In this document: positions 1,985 to 55,486 of the stretch, piece by piece | How positions within the stretch are numbered: position 1 is the first letter of the stretch | Layout: every line of letters starts with the position of its first letter | NCBI RefSeq assembly: GCF_003018115.1 | Contig: NZ_CP027457.1 | Direction: 5' to 3' (one strand) | From: Escherichia coli | Lineage (GTDB): Bacteria; Pseudomonadota; Gammaproteobacteria; Enterobacterales; Enterobacteriaceae | Length of the DNA stretch: 64,000 nucleotides | Notes under the pieces: generated by a model | What the model saw: the letters and a program-made list of their open reading frames with translations, nothing else | Told to the model about the DNA's origin: nothing | Database searches by the model: none | Translations under genes and position numbers: made by a program

Positions 1985-2689
1985 TTAACGGCGGTTGCCG
2001 AAGATCCGCAGCAACATCAGGAACAGGTTGATGAAATCGAGATACAGCGTTAATGCGCCAAGAATGGAATATTTGCGCAGGTTCGACGTGTCGCGGGTAT
2101 CTATCTGCTCACCCATATTTTTCAGTTTCTGGGTGTCATACGCCGTCAATCCGACAAAGACAATCACGCCGATGTAGGTGACTGCCCACATCAACGCTTC
2201 GCTTTTCAGCCAGAAGTTGACCAGCGATGCCAACACAATGCCGATTAACGCCATAAACAGCATATTACCAAAGCCGCTTAGATCGCGCTTCGTGGTGTAA
2301 CCATACAGGCTCATTGCGCCGAACATCCCGGCAGTAACGACGAAAGTACTGGCGATAGAAGCAGCGGTATAGACAATGAAAATACTGGAAAGCGTAAGAC
2401 CCGTCAGCGCCGAATAAAGCATAAAGAGCATCGTCGTTACACCTGCGCTCAGCTTTTGAATCATCGCTGATAACACAATAACCAATGCTAATTGCGCGAT
2501 GATCAGACCGATTAAAAAGACACGGTTAGTGAACAACAGCTCCATCACGGCCGCGGAATTAGCCGCATACCAGGCAACAAATGCGGTCAGCAACAAGCCA
2601 ACGGTCATCCAGCCATAGACTTGCGCCATATAAGTTTGCAAGCCAGCCCGGGGTTGTACGATTGAATCAGAACGTGGGAATCTGTCCAT
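1985..2689 (-). CDS. ybhL: BAX inhibitor-1 family inner membrane protein YbhL
   Basis: Translation MDRFPRSDSIVQPRAGLQTYMAQVYGWMTVGLL..., about 234 aa, 7-TM BI-1 pattern. Confidence 0.85.
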   Translation of the reverse strand: MDRFPRSDSIVQPRAGLQTYMAQVYGWMTVGLLLTAFVAWYAANSAAVMELLFTNRVFLIGLIIAQLALVIVLSAMIQKLSAGVTTMLFMLYSALTGLTLSSIFIVYTAASIASTFVVTAGMFGAMSLYGYTTKRDLSGFGNMLFMALIGIVLASLVNFWLKSEALMWAVTYIGVIVFVGLTAYDTQKLKNMGEQIDTRDTSNLRKYSILGALTLYLDFINLFLMLLRIFGNRR

Positions 2690-2825
2690 GACGATCTCCT
2701 GAAGATATAAGGAATATCTTAAGGATACTGCAAAATGATGAGGCTGTGCATCGACGCAGCGTAAACGCATGTACTGAGCGGTGAAATTGCCGGACGCAGC
2801 GGTGCCTTATCCGGCTAACAAAAAA

Positions 2826-3278
2826 CTACCAGCGTTTTGCTGCCTGCTGATCGCTCTCCCGAGCTTCAACCCAGCGGTCGCCTTCAGGCGTGGCTTCGCG
2901 CTTCCAGAACGGTGCGCGGGTTTTGAGATAATCCATAATAAACTGCCCGGCTTCAAACGCACTGCTGCGATGCGCACTGGTGACACCGACAAAAACAATT
3001 TCATCGCCCGGCCATAATTCCCCGATGCGGTGAATCACCGTGACGCGCCCCAGCGGCCAGCGGTTACGCGCTTCATCGACAATTTCTGCCAGTGCTTTTT
3101 CAGTCATCCCCGGATAGTGTTCGAGGGTTAATGCTTTGACGCTGTCGCCCAGGTTATGGTTGCGCACCTTACCAGTAAAGGTGACTACCGCACCGTCTTC
3201 GTCACGCTCCGCCAGCCACGGGTACTCTTCTCCTACGCTGAACGGCTGCGGACCAACAACAATTTTGGTTTCTGCCAT
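2826..3278 (-). CDS. moaE: Molybdopterin synthase catalytic subunit MoaE
   Basis: 150-aa translation MAETKIVVGPQPFSVGEEYPWL...; operon order moaA-E. Confidence 0.92.
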   Translation of the reverse strand: MAETKIVVGPQPFSVGEEYPWLAERDEDGAVVTFTGKVRNHNLGDSVKALTLEHYPGMTEKALAEIVDEARNRWPLGRVTVIHRIGELWPGDEIVFVGVTSAHRSSAFEAGQFIMDYLKTRAPFWKREATPEGDRWVEARESDQQAAKRW

Positions 3279-3279
3279 C

Positions 3280-3525
3280 TTAACCTCCGGTTACCGGCGG
3301 GAAGAAAGCTACTTCGTCGCCGTCAGTCAGCGGATGGTCAAAACTCACCAGCGTCTGGTTGACGGCAGCCAGTAATTTGCCATCTTCCAGCGCCAGCGCC
3401 CAGCGATCGCTCTGCGCAGCCAGGTGCTGGCGTAACGCTTCAACGGTTGGGAAATCCGCAGCCACTTCGGTTGCATCTGTTCCTACCAACTCGCGCACCT
3501 GGGCGAAAAAAAGAACTTTAATCAT
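3280..3525 (-). CDS. moaD: Molybdopterin synthase sulfur carrier subunit MoaD
   Basis: 81-aa translation [17 protein letters not shown]... ending in GG. Confidence 0.9.
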
Positions 3526-4003
3526 CCGCTTCCACCTTAAAGTCACCTGACTTGCCGCCGCTCTTCGCCAGCAAACGTACCGGACCAATCACCATATCTT
3601 TTTGCACCGCTTTGCACATGTCATAAATGGTCAGCGCCGCCACGGAGGCCGCGGTTAACGCTTCCATTTCGACACCGGTTTTCCCGGTCAGGCGGCATAA
3701 GGTTTCTATACGCACCCGATTGTGCTCCGGCTCGGCCTGTAAATTGACTTCAACTTTGCTGAGCATCAGCGGATGACACAGCGGGATCAGATCCCAGGTG
3801 CGTTTTGCCGCCTGAATACCGGCAATACGCGCAGTGGCAAATACGTCGCCTTTGTGGTGGCGACCATCAATAATCATCGCCAGCGTCTCGCTGCGCATGG
3901 TGACAAAGGCTTCCACCCGCGCTTCACGCACGGTTTCCGCTTTGGCGGAGACATCCACCATGTGCGCTTCGCCAGCGGCGTTGATATGGGTCAGTTGCGA
4001 CAT
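3518..4003 (-). CDS. moaC: Cyclic pyranopterin monophosphate synthase MoaC
   Basis: 161-aa translation [21 protein letters not shown]... Confidence 0.92.
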
Positions 4004-4005
4004 AC

Positions 4006-4518
4006 TTATTTCTTCAAATGTGGATGGAAATTACACGGACGCGTACGGGCATCCAGCTGCGGCGCGATGATATTTTCCCATGCGGTACGGCACGCTTTGG
4101 TCGAACCCGGCATGGCGAAAATCAGCGTTTTGTTAGCGACGCCCGCTACCGCACGAGATTGCAACGTGGAAGTGCCAATCTCTTCAAACGACAACATACG
4201 GAACACTTCACCAAAACCTTCAACTTCACGGTCGAACAACGGCAGCAATGCTTCGGGAGCCTGATCACCTTCCGTCAGGCCAGTCCCCCCCGTAATCAAC
4301 ACCACTTGTACATCGTCGCTGGCGATCCACGCAGATACCTGAGCGCGAATAGCGTAGCGGTTTTCTTTCACAATGGCTTTATCGACAACGTGATGGCCCG
4401 CTTCTTGCGCCGAATCGCGCAAATAGTGACCGGAGGTATCGTCTTCTTCACCGCGACGATTAGAAACCGTAAGAATAGCAATACGGGTCGGGATAAATTC
4501 AGTGCTTACCTGACTCAT
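4006..4518 (-). CDS. moaB: Molybdenum cofactor biosynthesis protein MoaB
   Basis: 170-aa translation [30 protein letters not shown]... Confidence 0.92.
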
Positions 4519-4539
4519 CTGATCTCTCCTTTTGACGTT

Positions 4540-5529
4540 TTAGCCGCCAATGTACGATAAGTTTTGCGTAATACCGGTGTTGTTTTGATGCAGGAAATGG
4601 GTCTGTTTCTTCTCCCGCAGCGCCGCTGAAATACGCGCTTCCAGCGCCTGTTGCTGGGCATCGTCTTCCAGCAGATCGCGCAGGTTAACACCGCCTTCAC
4701 CAAACAGGCAGAGATGGAGTTTACCAATGGAGGAAACGCGCAGACGGTTGCAAGTGGCGCAGAAGTCTTTTTCATACGGCATGATAAGGCCAATCTCTCC
4801 GGCGTAATCCGGATGACAAAAGACTTGCGCGGGACCGTCGCTGCGTTGACGTAATTGGTGGATCCAGCCGCGACGCAGTAGCTCGTCACGCAGAACCTGA
4901 CCAGAGATGTGATGCTTACGGAAGAGCTCGCTGCCCTCGCCCGTTTCCATCAGTTCGATGAAACGCAGCTGGATGGGACGATGCTGGATCCAGTTCAGAA
5001 AGGTGTCGAGCTGGTGATGATTAACATCACGCATCAGCACTGTATTGACTTTGACCTTCTCAAAACCGGCCTCAAATGCAGCATCAATCCCCGCCATGAC
5101 CTGGTTGAATTTATCCTGCCCGGTAATAGCGTGAAACTGGCGGGCGTCCAGACTGTCGACACTGACGTTGATGCCAGTAAGTCCAGCATCGCGCCAGTTC
5201 GCCACATCGCGTTCCAGACGGTAACCATTGGTGGTGACCGCAATCTGGCGGATAGCGTCGTTTTCTCGCACAGCGGCGATGATATCGGTAAAGTCGCGGC
5301 GTAAAGACGGCTCACCGCCTGTCAGGCGCACTTTTTCGGTGCCCAGACTGGCGAAGGCGCGCGTAACCCGGCGAATTTCATCGACGGTCAGAAAGCCTTT
5401 ATTGGTGACGCCGCTCGGTTTGTAGCCATCCGGCAGGCAGTAGGTGCAACGAAAGTTACACACATCGGTAATCGACAGGCGCAAGTAGTAAAACTTACGC
5501 GCAAATGCATCAGTCAGTTGTGAAGCCAT
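4540..5529 (-). CDS. moaA: GTP 3',8-cyclase MoaA (radical SAM)
   Basis: Translation from [31 protein letters not shown] (CxxxCxxC radical SAM motif); 329 aa. Confidence 0.92.
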
Positions 5530-15229: not shown

Positions 15230-15244
15230 TTAGTATAAAAAAGC
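15230..15244. repeat. attR: Prophage attachment site core, attR (P-O-B' read on the minus strand)
   Basis: Exact lambda 15-bp core GCTTTTTTATACTAA (as reverse complement) with bacterial B' arm CTTGAGCGAAACG on the ybhB side and lambda-like P arm on the phage side. Confidence 0.85.
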
Positions 15245-38119: not shown

Positions 38120-38304
38120 GGTCTTCCCCTCTTGCCCTGTTTGACCATCAGGACGCCGTTAACTATTACGTGACGCTCGCCTTTGCTGTCTCGGTTGTAC
38201 TTGAGCACTGTTCCTCTTGCGCAGGAAAGCATCCTCGCCACTTCGGTCTGATTGCCTCGTGTCTGGATAAGAAGCTCTGGTATCGTTTGAATTGTGGCGT
38301 TCAT
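38116..38304 (-). CDS. ninH: NinH-like protein
   Basis: 62-aa translation with ...YGNQTEVARMLSCARGTV... resembling lambda NinH. Confidence 0.7.
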   Translation of the reverse strand: MNATIQTIPELLIQTRGNQTEVARMLSCARGTVLKYNRDSKGERHVIVNGVLMVKQGKRGRP

Positions 38305-38663
38305 ACGTTCTCCAGTTCGGTGATTTTTATTCCAAGCCTTCCGCCTGGTACTTTCACACCACGAATTACGCGAATGTCATCGAATTGCTCGTCGTCTTCC
38401 GCAAATCCGGCGTGGATAAGGGAGTCGAGTAAACCCTTCAGGATGTTATCGAGGTCGCGGCGGCGGGAGTCTGGAACGTCTGCGATGACTTTGATGCGGA
38501 GTCGTGATTTGGTGAAAATATCTAACTTGAGTTGGCGGATGATTTGCTGAACGTCTTTTCGGTATTTCTGGCCTTTATCGCTGATGTAGTATTGGCTTCC
38601 CCGTCTTCGCCAGTAGGTATTCACCGACGGCGGGTATGGAAGCACAAACCGATATTCATTCAT
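38301..38663 (-). CDS. rusA: Holliday junction resolvase RusA-like
   Basis: 120 aa; motifs LPYPPSVN...DVPDSRRRDLDN... typical of RusA. Confidence 0.8.
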   Translation of the reverse strand: MNEYRFVLPYPPSVNTYWRRRGSQYYISDKGQKYRKDVQQIIRQLKLDIFTKSRLRIKVIADVPDSRRRDLDNILKGLLDSLIHAGFAEDDEQFDDIRVIRGVKVPGGRLGIKITELENV

Positions 38664-38950
38664 GACTTAACCTTCCCCTCCTTCAGCAATACCGCCTGCG
38701 TCCTGATCACGCCTTCGAGGTGGTAAAGTCTGGCGTCTTTGTTGTCGAGGTTATGGGTGCGTCGGTCGATTTCATCGTGACACGCGCTACAAGCCCATGC
38801 GCCGATCAGGTCGTCAGGCTTCATTCCCGTTCCGCAAATTCCAGCCATCCGGTAATGTGCCAGAACTGTAGTTTCAGGATTGCCATTGCATACGCCGTAA
38901 ATACGTACCTGGCATTCTCTGCCGCGTGCTTCTTTGCGTAGGTTAGCCAT
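38660..38950 (-). CDS. Cysteine-rich nin-region protein (DUF1364-like)
   Basis: 96 aa with paired Cys/His motifs; nin-region context. Confidence 0.5.
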   Translation of the reverse strand: MANLRKEARGRECQVRIYGVCNGNPETTVLAHYRMAGICGTGMKPDDLIGAWACSACHDEIDRRTHNLDNKDARLYHLEGVIRTQAVLLKEGKVKS

Positions 38951-39753: not shown

Positions 39754-39926
39754 TTCCTCGCACGATGTCTTAGCCACCGGATATCCCACAGGTGAGCCGT
39801 GTAGTTGAAGGTTTTTACGTCAGATTCTTTTGGGATTGGCTTGCGTTTATTTCTGGAGCGTTTCGTTGGAAGGTATTTGCAGTTTTCGCAGATGATGTCG
39901 GTGATACTTCGTCGCTGTCGTCTCAT
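39750..39926 (-). CDS. ninE: NinE-like protein
   Basis: Translation [58 protein letters not shown] matches lambda NinE. Confidence 0.8.
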
Positions 39927-40333
39927 TCGTACCTCCTGTCGGTAAATCTGACACCCTGACCAATAGCCCACGCTGTTGTGTACTCAATCAGACTTGCCAT
40001 ACGCTTTACACTCATCTGCGCGCTGCTTTCGCGGATGTTGACGTATTCGCCTTCAAGCCCGGGCAAAACATCAGCTTCCTGCTTTGTTGCCACTGCATGA
40101 CCGCTGATCAACAAAACCTTCCATTGTTCTGGTTTTAACCATTTATCGCGCCACTGAACTTGCCTGGCGATATCTGCGACCATCGCGTGAAATTTTGCGT
40201 TCTGGTCAAGATTTCGCTTGTAGTCAGTAATGCGGATGGTGACTGGCTTGTCTTTATCGAGTGGTGTTGCGAGGATGGCATTTATTGCGGCTTGCTGTTG
40301 TTGCTTAGTTCGGAGGAAGATTGTTTGCTTCAC
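39923..40333 (-). CDS. ninB: NinB (Orf) recombination mediator-like protein
   Basis: 136 aa; ...[27 protein letters not shown]... resembles lambda NinB. Confidence 0.75.
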
Positions 40334-44214: not shown

Positions 44215-44931
44215 ATGGAAAATAAAAAATCACTGACGACAGAACAGCTCGAAGACGCTAAGCGGCTTAAGGCTTTGTATGAGTCAAAAAAGAAAGAATT
44301 GGGAATAACCCAATACTCAATCGCTGATGAACTGGGTATCACCCAAGGAGCGGTAGGGCATTATCTTAATGGCAGAAACGCGCTAAACGTTGAGGTCGCA
44401 TCTGGTTTTGCACGTTTGTTGCAAGTCTCAATTGCTGATTTTAGCCAGTCAATTGCTGCCAAGGTTGCAGAACAGGCAGAAAGCCTTAAGAGCGATGCCA
44501 ACGTAAGGTATGCAGGGGAATACAGAGCAGGAAAGAGGTATCCGGTGTTAAGCAGTATCCAGGCTGGCTCGTGGTGTGAAGCATGCGAACCATACACCAT
44601 TAAAGACATAGATGTTTGGCTTGAGTCTGACGCGCATATTCAAGGTAATGCGTTCTGGCTTAAAGTGGAAGGTGATTCAATGACGGCACCGGTTGGGTTA
44701 AGCATTCCAGAGGGAACATTCGTTCTTTTCGATACCGGAAGGGAGGCGATCAACGGCAGCTTGGTCATAGCAAAACTTTCTGACTCTAACGAAGCAACAT
44801 TCAAGAAGCTGATAATCGACGGCGGAAATAAATACCTCAAGGGACTTAATCCTGCATGGCCTCTCGTGCCAATCAATGGAAACTGCAAGATTATAGGCGT
44901 TGCAATTGAGACAAAACTAAGGCTGGTTTGA
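44215..44931 (+). CDS. cI: CI repressor (HTH plus LexA-like S24 autocleavage domain)
   Basis: 238 aa; ...LTTEQLEDAKRLKALYESKKKELGITQYSIADELG... and C-terminal ...AFWLKVEGDSMTAP... resemble lambda CI. Confidence 0.9.
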   Translation: MENKKSLTTEQLEDAKRLKALYESKKKELGITQYSIADELGITQGAVGHYLNGRNALNVEVASGFARLLQVSIADFSQSIAAKVAEQAESLKSDANVRYAGEYRAGKRYPVLSSIQAGSWCEACEPYTIKDIDVWLESDAHIQGNAFWLKVEGDSMTAPVGLSIPEGTFVLFDTGREAINGSLVIAKLSDSNEATFKKLIIDGGNKYLKGLNPAWPLVPINGNCKIIGVAIETKLRLV

Positions 44932-47281: not shown

Positions 47282-47452
47282 ATGCAACAGTTCGCTATTG
47301 CAGGGGCGGCATCGGTTCGCCCTTTCAACCCGATTTTATCGGTACAGCATTCACGAAAAAACATTCTAACCGGAGCAGACTTTAAACAACCAAGAATGAA
47401 AAGTTTGCTCGAAAAGCTTTGGGATATTTTGAAACAACAAGGCCGCCCATGA
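47282..47452 (+). CDS. cIII: CIII-like protein (FtsH inhibitor)
   Basis: Translation MQQFAIAGAASVRPF...KSLLEKLWDILKQQGRP resembles lambda CIII; AAGGAG RBS. Confidence 0.7.
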   Translation: MQQFAIAGAASVRPFNPILSVQHSRKNILTGADFKQPRMKSLLEKLWDILKQQGRP

Positions 47453-47533
47453 GTTTTACAGATAGCTGGTCAGACGAAGAATTCATTCGTCAGATGAACA
47501 AAATGCTCAATCAGCACAAAGAACAGGAGAAAG

Positions 47534-47845
47534 ATGATGATTCTGACTCTGAATGATAAGCGTGAAATATCGCAAATAATCGCAAGTTTTACTGATGAAG
47601 ATTACGAACGAATCAACAGTGAAGTTGATCGCCTCTGCAAACGTTGCGACCCAATAAGCGAAATGCTTCGATCATATAAACCAGATGAACACACTAAGGA
47701 CGCTATCGACTGGCTGGAAGATGATGACTGTAACTATCAGGAAAAAGCCGCTGAATGGTTCTGGGATGCAATAACCGAAAGAGTTAAGGCTGAATATGCC
47801 TTCGCAATATTCAAACGCAGACATATTTATGGAGAAGCTGCATGA
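47534..47845 (+). CDS. Hypothetical protein upstream of recT (possible Abc2/Kil-like function)
   Basis: 103-aa acidic ORF; position analogous to anti-RecBCD/kil genes in P22 and lambda; no direct motif evidence. Confidence 0.4.
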   Translation: MMILTLNDKREISQIIASFTDEDYERINSEVDRLCKRCDPISEMLRSYKPDEHTKDAIDWLEDDDCNYQEKAAEWFWDAITERVKAEYAFAIFKRRHIYGEAA

Positions 47846-48744
47846 GCAATATCGTTGAATTCGTTAAACAGCAAGAGCAGTTATTCTGCGGAGCATTGAC
47901 TGAACAGACGGTGACATGGGCTAAGGAAAGCCAGTTTGCAATTCAGTATTTCCAGAAAAACGATTACCTGGCTAAAACAGCACTGGCAAATCCAACCAGC
48001 GCACAGAACGCCATCATCAATGTTGCGGCGATCGGCATCACCTTAAACCCGGCCAGCAAACTGGCTTATCTGGTTCCTCGCGACGGCATGGTGTGCCTTG
48101 ATATCAGTTACATGGGATTACTTCATCTTGCGCAATCGACAGGATCAATTAAGTGGGGGCAATGCAAACTGGTGTACTCAAACGACACCTATGAATCAAA
48201 TGGCCTTGATTCAGCACCAACCCACAAATACAACGCATTTGGTGAGCGAGGCTCTATTGTTGGAGGTTATTGCACGGTTAAAACAGCAGATGGTGACTAC
48301 CTGACTGAAGAAATGAGTCTGGCAGAAATTAAAGCTGTGGAAGCAACGAGCAAGGCAAAGAATGGACCGTGGAAAACATTCTGGGAAGAGATGGCGCGTA
48401 AAACAATAGTTAAACGCGCCAGCAAATACTGGCCTAAAGCCCAGCGACTGGATAATGCCATTCACCTGCTTAACGAAGATGAAGGTGTGCATCAGGAACC
48501 AGTTATGCCGCACAAATCAGAGGAAGATATCCGCGAAGATGAACGGAAACGCCAGCAGGAAATAATGGATAAAGCACAACTTCTTTGCGATGAAATGTCT
48601 CAGGCAGAAAACATGGATGATTTGAAGCGATATTTTGCAGAAGCATATCGCCTGACATCTGGAATGAAATTGCAGCAGAACGTACAAGCCATTTACATAG
48701 AATGCAAAGCGAAACTGGAGGTTGCCAGTGAGCAAACTGTATGA
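47842..48744 (+). CDS. recT: RecT-family single-strand annealing protein
   Basis: 300 aa; ...NGPWKTFWEEMARKTIVKRASKYWP... matches the RecT family signature region. Confidence 0.8.
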   Translation: MSNIVEFVKQQEQLFCGALTEQTVTWAKESQFAIQYFQKNDYLAKTALANPTSAQNAIINVAAIGITLNPASKLAYLVPRDGMVCLDISYMGLLHLAQSTGSIKWGQCKLVYSNDTYESNGLDSAPTHKYNAFGERGSIVGGYCTVKTADGDYLTEEMSLAEIKAVEATSKAKNGPWKTFWEEMARKTIVKRASKYWPKAQRLDNAIHLLNEDEGVHQEPVMPHKSEEDIREDERKRQQEIMDKAQLLCDEMSQAENMDDLKRYFAEAYRLTSGMKLQQNVQAIYIECKAKLEVASEQTV

Positions 48745-49210
48745 AATAGCCAATGAATACGCAAAGCTGATGGATTCAGATTTAGAGCCAGAGATGATTG
48801 CTGACACAATAGAAGGCATGGAAGGAGAATTTACCGATAAAATAGAGCAACTTCTCGCCATTATTAAAAATGAATCTGGTTATGCTGAACGCCTCAAGGA
48901 AGAGGCAAAGTCACTAAATGAGAGAGCCGCAGTAATTCAAAATAAGATTGACAGCATTATGGCGTATATAGCGTCATCGCTTGAAATGGTTGGCAAGAAA
49001 AAGATTCGAGCAGGTATTCACCAGGTAACAATCCGCAAACCGTCAGAAACTGTAGAAATCATCGACTCAAGCGCCCTTCCTCCTGAATACGTTGAATTTG
49101 AAACGACAATTAAAGCCGACAAACTGGCAATCAAACACCAACTAAAAGCAGGAATAAATATCCCCGGCGCTCAACTCAAAGTTGGGAAACCTTCACTTCT
49201 TATCAAATAA
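48728..49210 (+). CDS. Siphovirus Gp157-like protein
   Basis: About 160 aa, (M)SKLYEIANEYAKL... coiled-coil-rich; typical partner of recT modules; probable GTG start. Confidence 0.45.
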   Translation: MSKLYEIANEYAKLMDSDLEPEMIADTIEGMEGEFTDKIEQLLAIIKNESGYAERLKEEAKSLNERAAVIQNKIDSIMAYIASSLEMVGKKKIRAGIHQVTIRKPSETVEIIDSSALPPEYVEFETTIKADKLAIKHQLKAGINIPGAQLKVGKPSLLIK

Positions 49211-49221
49211 CGGTATCGCCT

Positions 49222-49536
49222 ATGAAAAAGACTCCATGGGAGAAATGGGAAGTCGATTTCTTGCGCGAAGTGGCGGCGACAATGCCAGTTGAAGTTATCG
49301 CTGAAAAACTGGAAAGGACTGAAAAAGCAGTAATGGCGAAAGCAACAAGGATTGGAGCTGACATTGTTAGCCGACTTCGTGGAAGACGCTGGACAAGAGC
49401 CGAAGTATCACTTTTCGGTAAGTTCTCCGCAGAAGAAATAGCAATTGCAACCTGCCGCTCAATTTATTCAGTAAGAGCTATGAGATACAAGCTAAAAAAA
49501 CTCGATGAAGAAAGAGCAGGCATACGAATAAATTAA
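49222..49536 (+). CDS. Hypothetical protein
   Basis: 104-aa ORF. Confidence 0.4.
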   Translation: MKKTPWEKWEVDFLREVAATMPVEVIAEKLERTEKAVMAKATRIGADIVSRLRGRRWTRAEVSLFGKFSAEEIAIATCRSIYSVRAMRYKLKKLDEERAGIRIN

Positions 49537-49552
49537 CATGGAGTAATTAACA

Positions 49553-49834
49553 ATGAAGCTAAACATAGACCTAGGCAAATATGTTATTACAGGAACCAAA
49601 CACGACCTGATTCTTAGTGAAAGAGGAATTATCAAAGAAGGTGAGAATGCAGGGAAAGAAACACTAAGCCGTATCGGTTATTACAGCAAGTTTGAGCATC
49701 TGGTTAAAGAGTTATGTAACCGTGAAATCCTGTTATCTCAGGCGCAGACGCTACAGGATATTCAGCAGCATATCGAAACTTTAGGTATGTCACTTAGCAT
49801 GGCTATTGACCAGTTCGTGGAGAGTAAATCATGA
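49553..49834 (+). CDS. Hypothetical protein
   Basis: 93-aa ORF. Confidence 0.4.
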
Positions 49835-49991
49835 GAGGACTTGCATACAATCCCGGCATTCTTCCGGCAGAAATGATTATTCGCCAACGCGTAAAACCAA
49901 TGCCATCGAGAGAGGAATTGCTTAAGAGAAATTCTTTTCCATCAGTGAATCAAAACAAATATCTGAATGCTATGTGGCGGAGTGGGAAGAA

Positions 49992-50468
49992 ATGAAACTA
50001 ATGTCACTAATTGAGATGGATGGTTTTCTGAAAGGTAAATGCATCCCACGAGATTTAAAGGTTAACGAAACAAACGCTGAATATCTGGTGCGTAAGTTCG
50101 GTGAGCTTGAATCAAAACTGGAAACGGCGTTGCGGGAGTGTCGTTCTGCTGGAATCACGATTGATAACCTTGAGGCTAAATGCGCGAAGATGGCTGCTGA
50201 AAATACCTCGCTTAAGCAATCTGAGAAGGAATTTAATGACTTTTGTCGTGAGGAGTTTAGCGAATGGGAAGATGATGTTACTGAACCCCAAGCCACCGAT
50301 GCTTTCCTGGCTGAAGTCCGGGCTAAGGCGTTTGATGACCTTTGCGCGGCGTTCGTTAAGCACGCGTCGGTGTCCGGGCTGGACGATGGCGACTGCGTTA
50401 CGGTGAAAGAGGCGACTGACGCCCTGCTGCATTGTGCGGAACAGCTTCACGAGGGAGTGCATTCATGA
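49992..50468 (+). CDS. Hypothetical coiled-coil protein
   Basis: About 158-aa ORF from [16 protein letters not shown]... Confidence 0.4.
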
Positions 50469-50707
50469 GCAACCTACTACCATGTCCATTCTGTGGCGGC
50501 GCAGCGCACGTTGCCAGCGAAGCAGATCACCCTGAATATGGCTCTGGCGGTCGATTCTATTTCGTTCGATGCGGTACGTGTCGCGCTCAATCTGGTAGCA
50601 AATATGCAGCGCCTGGAAATGACTGCGCGATTTTTTATTCAGAGGTTAGAGCAGAGTGGAATCAGCGAGCAAAGGAGGCAACCAGTGAGCGGAAAAAGAA
50701 TGACTAA
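50465..50707 (+). CDS. lar: Lar-family restriction alleviation protein
   Basis: Translation [16 protein letters not shown]...FVRCGTCRAQ... with the CPFCGG zinc motif typical of Lar. Confidence 0.65.
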   Translation: MSNLLPCPFCGGAAHVASEADHPEYGSGGRFYFVRCGTCRAQSGSKYAAPGNDCAIFYSEVRAEWNQRAKEATSERKKND

Positions 50708-50909
50708 CAGAGAGCTTGTTGATGCCGCCATTAAGCTTGCTGGTGATTTTTATTCAATGATGGGGTACACGCATCGCCCAGGCTTCAAATATTGGGAGTC
50801 TCCGCACCCGCAAGAGCAACTGGTATTTCAAATGGCCTGCCGTGCTTTTGAGGTTATTCGCGGTTCTGATGTGATGGACGCCGTTGCCGACTTGGAGGAT
50901 GAAGAGTGA
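50700..50909 (+). CDS. Hypothetical protein
   Basis: About 69-aa ORF MTNRELVDAAIKLAGDFYSMMGY...; start approximate. Confidence 0.35.
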   Translation: MTNRELVDAAIKLAGDFYSMMGYTHRPGFKYWESPHPQEQLVFQMACRAFEVIRGSDVMDAVADLEDEE

Positions 50910-52801: not shown

Positions 52802-53020
52802 ATGTACTTGACACTTCAGGAGTGGAACGCACGCCAGCGACGCCCAAGAAGCCTTGAAACAGTTCGTCGATGGGTGCGCGAATGCAGGATATTCCCACCA
52901 CCGGTTAAGGATGGAAGAGAGTATCTGTTCCACGAATCAGCGGTAAAGGTTGACTTAAATCGACCAGTAACAGGTAGCCTTTTGAAGAGGATCAGAAATG
53001 GGAAGAAGGCGAAGTCATGA
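52802..53020 (+). CDS. xis: Excisionase Xis (lambda-type)
   Basis: 72-aa translation MYLTLQEWNARQRRPRSLETVRRWVRECRIFPPPVKDGREYLFHESAVKVDL... matches lambda Xis. Confidence 0.95.
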   Translation: MYLTLQEWNARQRRPRSLETVRRWVRECRIFPPPVKDGREYLFHESAVKVDLNRPVTGSLLKRIRNGKKAKS

Positions 53021-54068
53021 GCGCCGGGATTTACCCCCTAACCTTTATATAAGAAACAATGGATATTACTGCTACAGGGACCCAAGGACGGGTAAAGAGT
53101 TCGGATTAGGCAGAGACAGGAGGATAGCAATCACTGAAGCTATACAGGCCAACATTGAGTTATTTTCAGGACACAAACACAAGCCTCTGACAGCGAGAAT
53201 CAACAGTGATAATTCTGTTACGTTACATTCATGGCTTGATCGCTACGAAAAAATCCTCGCCAGCAGAGGAATCAAGCAGAAGACACTCATAAATTACATG
53301 AGCAAAATTAAAGCAATAAGGAGGGGGCTGCCTGATGTTCCACTTGAAGACATCACCACAAAAGAAATTGCGGCAATGCTCAATGGATACATAGACGAGG
53401 GCAAGGCGGCATCAGCCAAGTTAATCAGATCAACACTGAGCGATGCATTCCGAGAGGCTATAGCTGAAGGCCATATAACAACAAACCCGGTCGCTGCTAC
53501 TCGCGCAGCAAAATCAGAGGTAAGGAGATCAAGGCTTACGGCTGACGAATACCTGAAAATTTATCAAGCAGCAGAATCATCACCATGTTGGTTAAGACTT
53601 GCAATGGAACTGGCTGTTGTTACCGGACAGCGAGTTGGTGATTTATGCGAAATGAAGTGGTCTGATATCGTAGATGGATATCTTTATGTCGAGCAAAGCA
53701 AAACAGGCGTAAAAATTGCCATCCCAACAGCATTGCATGTTGATGCTCTCGGAATATCAATGAAGGAAACACTTGATAAATGCAAAGAGATTCTTGGCGG
53801 AGAAACCATAATTGCATCTACTCGTCGTGAACCGCTTTCATCCGGCACAGTATCAAGGTATTTTATGCGCGCACGAAAAGCATCAGGTCTTTCCTTCGAA
53901 GGGGATCCGCCTACCTTTCACGAGTTGCGCAGTTTGTCTGCAAGACTCTATGAGAAGCAGATAAGCGATAAGTTTGCTCAACATCTTCTCGGGCATAAGT
54001 CGGACACCATGGCATCACAGTATCGTGATGACAGAGGCAGGGAGTGGGACAAAATTGAAATCAAATAA
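52998..54068 (+). CDS. int: Integrase Int (tyrosine recombinase, lambda-type)
   Basis: 356-aa translation MGRRRSHERRDLPPNLYIRNNGYYCYRDPRTGKEFGLGRDRRIAITEAIQANIELF... matches lambda Int. Confidence 0.97.
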   Translation: MGRRRSHERRDLPPNLYIRNNGYYCYRDPRTGKEFGLGRDRRIAITEAIQANIELFSGHKHKPLTARINSDNSVTLHSWLDRYEKILASRGIKQKTLINYMSKIKAIRRGLPDVPLEDITTKEIAAMLNGYIDEGKAASAKLIRSTLSDAFREAIAEGHITTNPVAATRAAKSEVRRSRLTADEYLKIYQAAESSPCWLRLAMELAVVTGQRVGDLCEMKWSDIVDGYLYVEQSKTGVKIAIPTALHVDALGISMKETLDKCKEILGGETIIASTRREPLSSGTVSRYFMRARKASGLSFEGDPPTFHELRSLSARLYEKQISDKFAQHLLGHKSDTMASQYRDDRGREWDKIEIK

Positions 54069-54141: not shown

Positions 54142-54156
54142 TTAGTATAAAAAAGC
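54142..54156. repeat. attL: Prophage attachment site core, attL (B-O-P' read on the minus strand)
   Basis: 15-bp lambda core (as reverse complement) with lambda-like P' arm between core and int and bacterial arm on the ybhC side. Confidence 0.85.
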
Positions 54157-54202: not shown

Positions 54203-55486
54203 GTGAACACATTTTCAGTTTCCCGTCTGGCGCTGGCATTGGCTTTTGGCGTGACGCTGACCGCCTGTAGCTCAACACCACCCGATCAACGTCCTTCTGA
54301 TCAAACTGCGCCTGGTACCTCTTCTCGCCCGATTCTGTCGGCAAAAGAAGCGCAGAATTTCGATGCTCAACACTATTATGCATCCCTGACACCAGGTGCT
54401 GCAGCGTGGAATCCGTCCCCGATAACCCTGCCTGCGCAACCTGACTTTGTTGTCGGCCCGGCGGGTACTCAAGGTGTAACGCATACCACGATTCAGGCGG
54501 CGGTAGATGCGGCAATTATCAAGCGCACCAACAAGCGCCAGTATATTGCCGTGATGCCTGGTGAGTATCAGGGAACGGTGTATGTCCCTGCTGCTCCAGG
54601 TGGAATTACTCTGTACGGTACAGGTGAAAAACCGATTGATGTGAAGATTGGGCTTTCCCTTGATGGGGGCATGAGCCCTGCCGACTGGCGTCACGACGTC
54701 AACCCGCGCGGCAAATATATGCCAGGTAAACCAGCGTGGTATATGTACGATAGCTGCCAGCGCAAACGCAGCGACAGTATCGGTGTTCTGTGTTCTGCGG
54801 TCTTCTGGTCACAAAACAATGGCCTGCAACTGCAAAATCTGACCATCGAAAACACGCTGGGCGATAGCGTAGATGCAGGTAACCATCCGGCGGTGGCACT
54901 GCGTACTGACGGTGACCAGGTACAGATTAACAACGTTAACATTCTCGGTCGTCAGAACACCTTCTTTGTCACCAACAGCGGTGTGCAGAACCGTCTGGAA
55001 ACGAATCGTCAGCCGCGTACGCTGGTGACCAACAGCTACATTGAAGGGGATGTGGATATCGTTTCTGGTCGCGGCGCAGTGGTGTTCGATAACACCGAAT
55101 TCCGCGTGGTGAACTCACGTACTCAGCAAGAAGCGTATGTGTTTGCACCGGCTACGCTGTCCAACATCTATTACGGTTTCCTCGCCGTAAACAGCCGTTT
55201 CAATGCTTCCGGTGATGGCGTGGCGCAACTGGGCCGCTCGCTGGATGTTGATGCCAATACCAACGGTCAGGTGGTGATCCGTGATAGCGCCATCAACGAA
55301 GGTTTTAACACGGTTAAACCGTGGGGCGATGCGGTGATCTCTAATCGTCCGTTTGCGGGTAATACCGGCAGCGTTGACGATAGCGACGAAATACAGCGCA
55401 ATCTGAATGACACTAACTACAACCGCATGTGGGAATACAATAACCGCGGCGTGGGTAGCAAAGTGGTTGCAGAGGCGAAGAAGTAA
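54203..55486 (+). CDS. ybhC: Pectinesterase-like outer membrane lipoprotein YbhC
   Basis: 427 aa; signal peptide plus lipobox LTAC; right-handed beta-helix-like repeats. Confidence 0.85.
   Translation: MNTFSVSRLALALAFGVTLTACSSTPPDQRPSDQTAPGTSSRPILSAKEAQNFDAQHYYASLTPGAAAWNPSPITLPAQPDFVVGPAGTQGVTHTTIQAAVDAAIIKRTNKRQYIAVMPGEYQGTVYVPAAPGGITLYGTGEKPIDVKIGLSLDGGMSPADWRHDVNPRGKYMPGKPAWYMYDSCQRKRSDSIGVLCSAVFWSQNNGLQLQNLTIENTLGDSVDAGNHPAVALRTDGDQVQINNVNILGRQNTFFVTNSGVQNRLETNRQPRTLVTNSYIEGDVDIVSGRGAVVFDNTEFRVVNSRTQQEAYVFAPATLSNIYYGFLAVNSRFNASGDGVAQLGRSLDVDANTNGQVVIRDSAINEGFNTVKPWGDAVISNRPFAGNTGSVDDSDEIQRNLNDTNYNRMWEYNNRGVGSKVVAEAKK

Follow-up and report, generated by a model that had tools for sequence, protein, structure and literature searches.

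A RecT annealase gene without a partner exonuclease gene in an Escherichia coli prophage, accompanied by genes for candidate RecBCD-inhibiting and DNA-end-protecting proteins

The window analysed here, by which we mean the whole 64,000-nucleotide stretch of Escherichia coli DNA (contig NZ_CP027457.1 of assembly GCF_003018115.1), carries a phage recombination (Rec) module centred on a gene for a RecT-family single-strand annealing protein (SSAP). The gene run consists of cIII, a 35-amino-acid (aa) open reading frame (ORF) resembling HK75 Gp33 and P22 Arf, a 102-aa ORF, recT, gp157 and an abc1-like gene; all six are intact, and from cIII through gp157 the start and stop codons overlap.

47282..47452, + strand: cIII (56 aa), PHROG 550 'CIII anti-termination' (E=4e-22), upstream border of the Rec module
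47449..47556, + strand: 35-aa ORF with an N-terminus like that of HK75 Gp33, PHROG 2123 (6.2e-9) and PHROG 17766 (1.1e-14)
47537..47845 (103 aa from the ATG at 47534), + strand: 102-aa acidic protein, PHROG 3486, candidate RecBCD inhibitor with a predicted lambda-Gam-like fold
47842..48744, + strand: RecT-family single-strand annealing protein, 300 aa, Pfam PF03837 and PHROG 148
48728..49210, + strand: Sipho_Gp157-family protein, 160 aa, Pfam PF05565 and PHROG 253, putative Mu-Gam-like DNA-end protector
49222..49536, + strand: 104-aa Abc1-like / Mu gp9-like protein with two helix-turn-helix-like repeats, PHROG 323 (2.8e-20)

The ribosome-binding site of cIII, AAGGAG, lies 7 nt 5' of its ATG; the ATG of the 35-aa ORF overlaps the cIII stop (ATGA), and the GTG start of gp157 overlaps the end of recT. 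The GTG at 48728 is the likely gp157 start, because homologues have 160 aa, the alternative at 48722 giving 162 aa. A preliminary description of this DNA had placed a RecT annealase between an acidic 103-aa ORF and a Gp157-like protein, and all three ORFs are indeed found at those positions on the + strand; it had overlooked the small Gp33/Arf-like ORF (47449-47556) and the Abc1-like ORF (49222-49536).

The product of 47842-48744 is unambiguously a RecT-family annealase, for which annealing of single-stranded DNA (ssDNA) is the predicted activity: it matches Pfam PF03837 with 115.7 bits (cut-off 24, E=2.7e-33) and PHROG 148, 'RecT-like ssDNA annealing protein' (2.5e-91). It also shares 57% identity over 228 aa with the Rec/RecT protein of phi80, an experimentally active recombinase in phage-prophage recombination (PMC3945230). 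The C-terminal ~80 residues (~215-300) are kept in a divergent RecT that is likewise paired with Gp157, unlike in the Exo-paired phi80 Rec, a pattern compatible with partner-specific C-terminal domains.

Essentially all ORFs of the leftward early (pL) operon between cI and int, together with the replication and nin ORFs, were scanned against Pfam and PHROGs, and no YqaJ, lambda-Exo, RecE or DUF3799 domain was found in any of them; nor was a domain of the single-stranded DNA-binding protein (SSB) type. When exonucleases of related modules (lambda Exo, phi80 Exo, the RecE-like protein of SEN22, two YqaJ proteins and a DUF3799 protein) were used as tblastn queries against the six frames of the 64-kb window, nothing appeared below E=0.1, so that no degraded exonuclease remnant is detectable either. 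The earlier claim that recT has no RecE/lambda-Exo-type gene beside it is thus confirmed both by this search and by the domain scans of the early ORFs with hidden Markov models (HMMs), which it had proposed and which yielded no exonuclease domain. The adjoining exonuclease gene that characterises the two-component systems of SSAP plus exonuclease (lambda Red, RecET) is missing here, and nuclease-type domains occur in the prophage only in RusA and YbcO, neither of them a resection exonuclease type. We also considered an exonuclease hidden among the unannotated ORFs (109, 83, 98, 62, 164, 138, 86, 103 and 60 aa), which is unlikely because all of these ORFs are shorter than YqaJ or RecE domains and match no nuclease-family HMM.

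The module is part of a 38.9-kb prophage with an exact 15-bp repeat of the lambda att core at each end; with the bio side on one flank and ybhC (54203-55486) on the other, it occupies the lambda integration site.

15230-15244 and 54142-54156: lambda att core GCTTTTTTATACTAA, exact repeats
52998-54068: lambda-type integrase, right end of the prophage
52802-53020: excisionase, right end of the prophage

The large ORFs at ~16-34 kb match the P22-like virion gene set in size and order, and the nearest sequenced phages are classified as Lederbergvirus; a podovirus-type (P22-like) prophage occupies the lambda integration site adjoining ybhC. The Rec module belongs to the pL operon, which extends here from cI (44215-44931) to int and is read on the + strand. 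No Chi site was found inside the 38.9-kb prophage, in which ~1 would be expected by chance, and Chi absence is typical of phages with anti-RecBCD genes (PMC12315714). We consider it rather probable that a P22-like prophage, resident at the lambda attachment site, has its Rec module in this region, a grade that applies jointly to this identification and to the explanation of its working that is developed below. Among complete E. coli genomes, none contains a contiguous stretch with at least 80% of the 10-kb pL region, and the highest share is 70%.

Region 47400-49600 is ~93% identical in nucleotide sequence, over its full length, to HK140, mEpX1, Gally, vB_EcoP-611R6, Kapi1 and others. The modules of HK140, mEpX1 and Gally contain the same genes in the same order, and the one in the window is essentially another copy; what differs is the reading, since in print only recT, gam(gp157) and abc1 have been counted as the module, with the 102-aa and 35-aa ORFs left hypothetical. 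The authors of the Gally annotation named the three products 'RecT', 'Bacteriophage Mu Gam like protein' and 'Anti-RecBCD protein 1, similar to P22 Abc1', and recT-gam-abc1 has been treated as the recombination module of that phage (Misson et al. 2023, PMC9928086). In their analysis of 325 lambdoid genomes, Zheng, Casjens, Davidson, Amundsen and Smith (Genome Res 2025, PMC12315714) give HK140 as an explicit example of an annealase, SAP-4, 'with no phage-encoded nuclease' and 'with MuGam', lacking an SSB. The arrangement is not unusual: nuclease-less Rec modules account for 84 of the 246 lambdoid modules, and the 'P22' functional class (anti-RecBCD present, SSB absent, nuclease absent, annealase present) alone has 46 members (PMC12315714). 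With its annealase, its lack of nuclease and SSB and its contiguous gene of the Gp157/MuGam type, the module described here is of this 'P22' type. The contrast with P22 that had been drawn earlier fails, as P22 (arf-erf-abc1-abc2) is also without an exonuclease and falls in the very class to which the present module belongs (PMC12315714). RecT without an exonuclease is, in short, an architecture that has already been catalogued, and we claim no novelty for it.

Another component is the 102-aa protein encoded directly upstream of recT. It is acidic, with an isoelectric point (pI) of 4.65 and 24 D/E against 15 K/R residues, and it finds no family in Pfam even at E up to 10, a search that covers Gam only if the copy of Pfam used holds its model; the only PHROG that it matches is 3486, 'unknown function'. 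It is 100% identical to its counterpart in HK140, mEpX1 and Kapi1, and in 19 of the 19 phage records that carry it the annotation is 'hypothetical'. Both word-indexed and exhaustive HMMER searches delimit a narrow family of ~100-aa proteins with identities down to 27%, uniformly acidic (median pI 4.66, maximum 5.45). An AlphaFold2 model built on a 32-sequence alignment (predicted local distance difference test, pLDDT, 90.9; predicted template modelling score, pTM, 0.77) has five helices, the last of 37 residues, and in a comparison with 48,164 PDB chains its single top match was lambda GamS (75 of 89 residues, 2.1 A); the predicted model thus has a GamS-like all-helical fold. Lambda Gam, a dimeric mimic of DNA, is the textbook RecBCD inhibitor and acts by plugging the site at which DNA enters this host nuclease. 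Weak sequence-level signals agree with this fold: profile comparison with hhalign aligns the family colinearly with phi80 GamL over 85 columns (E=0.003), with no improvement when a GamL alignment from 80 viral contigs is used (E=0.015), and with lambda Gam at E=0.013, through a motif with which the C-terminal helix begins (DDDCNYQEKAAEW in the 102-aa protein, DDDVEFQERMAEH in lambda). The 102-aa protein lacks the significant sequence similarity that would place it with lambda Gam and GamL (hhalign E=0.003-0.015), whereas the predicted GamS fold is common to them. BLASTP comparisons of the 103-aa ORF with P22 Abc2 and Arf, and of a 45-aa ORF with P22 Kil, returned nothing significant. As a separate observation, in some E. 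coli prophages (P0022, P0009) the first ~48 residues of the 102-aa protein are fused to the C-terminus of the 164-aa ORF (49974-50468 in the window) or to a DUF551 protein, fusions that look like deletions removing the whole recT-gp157 block.

Further evidence comes from the genomic context of the family. Every relative examined lies just after cIII, usually with a ~40-aa ORF between, and directly upstream of a Rec module, so that the family holds the gam position in eight different contexts; what follows downstream varies:

RecT and Gp157: this window, HK140 and relatives, and the 35%-identical P0161
RecT and YqaJ/Exo: P0172, P0181, Cronobacter phage ENT47670 and Erwinia phage Midgardsormr38
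DUF3799 (RecE-like) and RecT: P0186
RecE-like exonuclease and a 189-aa protein: Salmonella phage SEN22, with the same flanking genes as here

In P0161, where the first-gene protein is 35% identical, the order is cIII, 42 aa, 107 aa, RecT, Gp157. In the relatives with an exonuclease, the order of 102-aa family, RecT and Exo is that of gam-bet-exo in lambda and of gamL-rec-exo in phi80. The locus in the window resembles both of these, in that a gene for a small acidic protein immediately precedes that of the annealase, the pair following cIII and kil in the pL operon, and differs from them in that Exo is missing and gp157 occupies the exo position. The module of SEN22, classed as one without an annealase (Zheng et al. 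2025, PMC12315714), deserves separate mention: SEN22 3135-5147 and window 47534-49536 have the same flanks (a 102-aa ORF of 96% identity and the Abc1-like ORF) around a different cassette, which is a clean case of cassette exchange inside a Rec module. Since the 102-aa family also accompanies this annealase-less module, a host-directed role is likelier for it than that of a RecT-specific cofactor. The earlier suggestion that the 103-aa ORF might encode an anti-RecBCD factor has gained real support from the predicted GamS-like fold and from the gam position in eight contexts, and we put the likelihood that the protein is a Gam-like RecBCD inhibitor close to, though a little short of, an even chance.

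The protein encoded downstream of recT is a member of Pfam Sipho_Gp157 (PF05565), matched over its full length with 126.8 bits (cut-off 28.6, E=1e-36), as are 28 of its 28 relatives, and it matches PHROG 253, 'Mu Gam-like end protection', at 2e-53. Mu Gam is a Ku-like binder of the ends of double-stranded DNA. A sub-threshold match to the Phage_Mu_Gam family, PF07352, is found in 7 of the 28 relatives, and in hhalign the C-terminal domains of Gp157 and Mu Gam are paired with a common R-x-P-S motif; Mu Gam itself is placed in another PHROG (491) and another Pfam family, and its homologues are too alike (at least 72%) to make a good profile. The AlphaFold2 monomer of Gp157 (pLDDT 70.6) consists of a 68-residue helix and a small beta domain, and its profile search of PDB sequences yielded no significant match. 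For HK140, the counterpart has been classed as 'MuGam' (PMC12315714). 'Mu-Gam-like' appears to be the best available label for Gp157, one that is attached by comparison of sequences rather than by demonstrated family membership. The treatment of Gp157 as a bystander in the preliminary description is nevertheless not sustained, the literature and PHROGs already labelling it as the Mu-Gam-like end-protection or anti-RecBCD component of such modules. Modules of Firmicute phages, in which an annealase (Erf, Sak4 or sometimes RecT) is paired with a Mu Gam, Sipho_Gp157, DUF1351 or DUF2483 gene (PMC8093625), are similar in having a Gp157/Gam-like gene in the place of an exonuclease; in them the Gp157-type gene usually precedes erf or sak4, whereas here it follows recT, and in an enterobacterial lambdoid phage.

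PHROG 323 is matched by P22 Abc1 (1.3e-23), Mu gp9 (5.2e-29) and the 104-aa ORF (2.8e-20), the ORF and Abc1 matching only partly overlapping regions of the profile; BLASTP of the 104-aa ORF gave nothing against P22 Abc1 and 5e-5 against Mu gp9, and the Gally orthologue is the protein annotated as 'Anti-RecBCD protein 1, similar to P22 Abc1'. The Mu gp9 gene lies directly upstream of Mu gam, so that proteins of PHROG 323 stand beside a Gam-like or anti-RecBCD gene in three otherwise unrelated phages (window 49222-49536, Mu 2483-3326, P22 6631-7255). This adjacency suggests a conserved functional pairing, and the direct neighbourhood of a PHROG 323 protein and a Gam-like gene is a likeness between the present module and Mu. 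With P22 the module shares the lack of a phage exonuclease, the presumed reliance on host functions, a protein that matches PHROG 323 as P22 Abc1 does, the small Arf-like ORF upstream and the P22-like virion genes; it differs in that the annealase is RecT, not Erf, and in that the RecC-binding hijacker Abc2 is absent. As for the 35-aa ORF, 15 of 21 N-terminal residues are identical to HK75 gp33 (BLASTP 1e-11), and there is a weak match to P22 Arf (E=0.011). According to a 2026 preprint, HK75 Gp33, whose gene opens the Rec locus of its phage, is sufficient to trigger OLD, a RecBCD-guarding defence; the authors hypothesise that it is a new inhibitor or manipulator of RecBCD (bioRxiv 10.64898/2026.07.10.737580). 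Transfer of this function to the 35-aa ORF is tentative because the similarity is limited to the N-terminal third.

In our best explanation, which we hold to be probable without being assured of it, a nuclease-less RecT would act on host-supplied ssDNA while RecBCD is neutralised or kept away. This explanation starts from what is seen at the locus: the gene identities and their order, the absence of an exonuclease, the predicted fold, and an arrangement conserved in working phages and in a divergent relative. From there, RecT would bind ssDNA and anneal it to complementary DNA, thereby serving to circularise the terminally redundant genome, to replicate it by recombination and to exchange DNA with other prophages; the 102-aa protein, most likely Gam-like, would plug the DNA-entry site of RecBCD; Gp157, most likely Mu-Gam-like, would bind and cap double-strand ends; and the ssDNA for RecT would come from host resection other than by RecBCD (e.g. 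of the RecQ/RecJ type) and from replication intermediates. What we infer here is that the 102-aa protein inhibits RecBCD, that Gp157 binds DNA ends and from where RecT obtains its ssDNA.

A number of observations weigh against this explanation. The hhalign probabilities for the comparisons of the 102-aa family with Gam and GamL are low, at 3-10%, and the family has no significant match to Pfam, to the PHROG Gam families or to PDB sequences, even though the lenient Pfam and PHROG scans covered all 32 members. The case for Gp157 meets similar difficulties: its match to PF07352, colinear over positions 29-147 of 149, reaches 16.6 bits, below the cut-off of 28.3 (E=0.008), the hhalign comparison with Mu Gam gives E~0.04-0.045 (with a single sequence and with a shallow 13-sequence alignment), and the mediocre AlphaFold2 model finds no informative fold match in the PDB. 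Deletion of recT-gam-abc1 from Gally still gives lysogenising virions, and the module is hence dispensable in some conditions (PMC9928086). Finally, if both proteins fully block RecBCD and the DNA ends, the resection needed by RecT is left without an explanation.

Other accounts of the locus need to be weighed against these difficulties. Current annotation would have it that Gp157, together with the Abc1-like protein, is the only anti-RecBCD or end-protecting function, in which case the 102-aa ORF might encode a regulator, an anti-defence protein or a host-takeover factor of the Kil type, and its likeness to GamS would be the sort of coincidence that small helical folds produce. We think this unlikely, although by some distance not negligible, for GamS was the single top match among 48,164 chains (75 of 89 residues, 2.1 A), and the function to which it points is the one predicted from the position of the gene; moreover, in the relatives with RecT and Exo or with RecE and RecT, the few downstream genes examined include no Pfam match to Gam, Mu Gam or Gp157, so that the uniformly acidic 102-aa family would fill an otherwise empty gam slot. 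The source of the ssDNA would, on the other hand, be explained by a hijack of the P22 kind. P22 Abc2 modifies RecBCD so that the host enzyme feeds Erf, and by analogy the 102-aa protein, the 35-aa Gp33/Arf-like protein or the Abc1-like protein might turn RecBCD into a Chi-independent resection nuclease feeding RecT. The P22-like virion genes, the putative relative of Abc1, the membership of the 'P22' functional class (PMC12315714) and the resemblance of the 35-aa ORF to HK75 Gp33, which triggers OLD as RecBCD manipulators do, would all fit such a role. No homologue of Abc2 was found, however, by PHROG scan, BLASTP or tblastn of the window, and the predicted fold matches that of a full inhibitor, lambda Gam, rather than Abc2 (8B1T); because of these two points we rank a hijack of RecBCD below its blockade and regard it as distinctly improbable, and a Mu-Gam-like end binder would, in addition, impede the loading of RecBCD.

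Least probable by far, and in our view scarcely tenable, is that the locus is a decayed remnant which has lost its exonuclease gene and whose RecT has ceased to belong to a functioning system. Such a loss might be read from the relatives that carry Exo/YqaJ downstream of the same upstream gene and RecT type (as also in phi80) and from the E. coli prophages P0022 and P0009 with deletion fusions across the region. Yet all six ORFs are intact, with starts and stops that overlap from cIII through gp157, the same architecture is present in the plaque-forming or inducible phages HK140, mEpX1, Gally and Kapi1 and in a divergent relative, and tblastn detects no exonuclease remnant; since Gp157 stands exactly in the place of exo, replacement rather than loss is indicated.

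If the blockade of RecBCD by the 102-aa protein is correct, its consequences would extend beyond this prophage. RecT without a partner exonuclease is a common and already tabulated design of lambdoid Rec modules, and that picture is unchanged; what is added is a specific prediction, namely Gam-like inhibition of RecBCD by a conserved 'hypothetical' protein that fronts many enterobacterial Rec modules, with the Gp33-like ORF and the recurrence of Abc1/gp9-like genes next to Gam-like genes as smaller leads. More speculatively, and with a likelihood that we place somewhat below even, the PHROG 3486 family may be a third, unrecognised sequence family of RecBCD inhibitors with the lambda Gam fold and may fill the actual role of gam in many RecT-type modules, among them some scored as lacking anti-RecBCD functions (SEN22 type). 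The module described here would then stack up to four functions controlling RecBCD or DNA ends (the Gp33/Arf-like peptide, the Gam-fold protein, the Mu-Gam-like Gp157 and the Abc1-like protein) around an annealase supplied with ssDNA solely by the host. Were the 102-aa protein indeed a Gam-like inhibitor, the 'no anti-RecBCD' class of some phages would have to be corrected, RecBCD-guarding defences (OLD, retron Ec48 and similar) would have a new trigger or target, and a compact alternative to Gam would be at hand for recombineering with RecT-type annealases.

Outside the Rec module, accessory recombination genes are found in the nin region, in which the domain scan identified NinB, NinE, NinX, NinF, YbcO, RusA, NinH and Q:

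39923..40333, - strand: NinB (Orf), recombination mediator, Pfam PF05772 (E=4.6e-53), an accessory recombination function
38301-38663, - strand: RusA, Holliday-junction resolvase, Pfam PF05866 (1.1e-16)
38660-38950, - strand: YbcO, putative nuclease, 96 aa, Pfam PF07102 (3.2e-44)

The other ORFs of the pL operon comprise, by Pfam and PHROG scan, N-like, DUF5405, DUF2737, Lar-like, Ead/Ea22 and DUF551 proteins and several without an assignment. Among them, the Lar-like restriction-alleviation ORF (50432-50707, + strand; PF14354, 1.9e-9) overlaps, in another frame, a 138-aa ORF (50493-50909) that matches PHROG 4132 at 2.3e-68.

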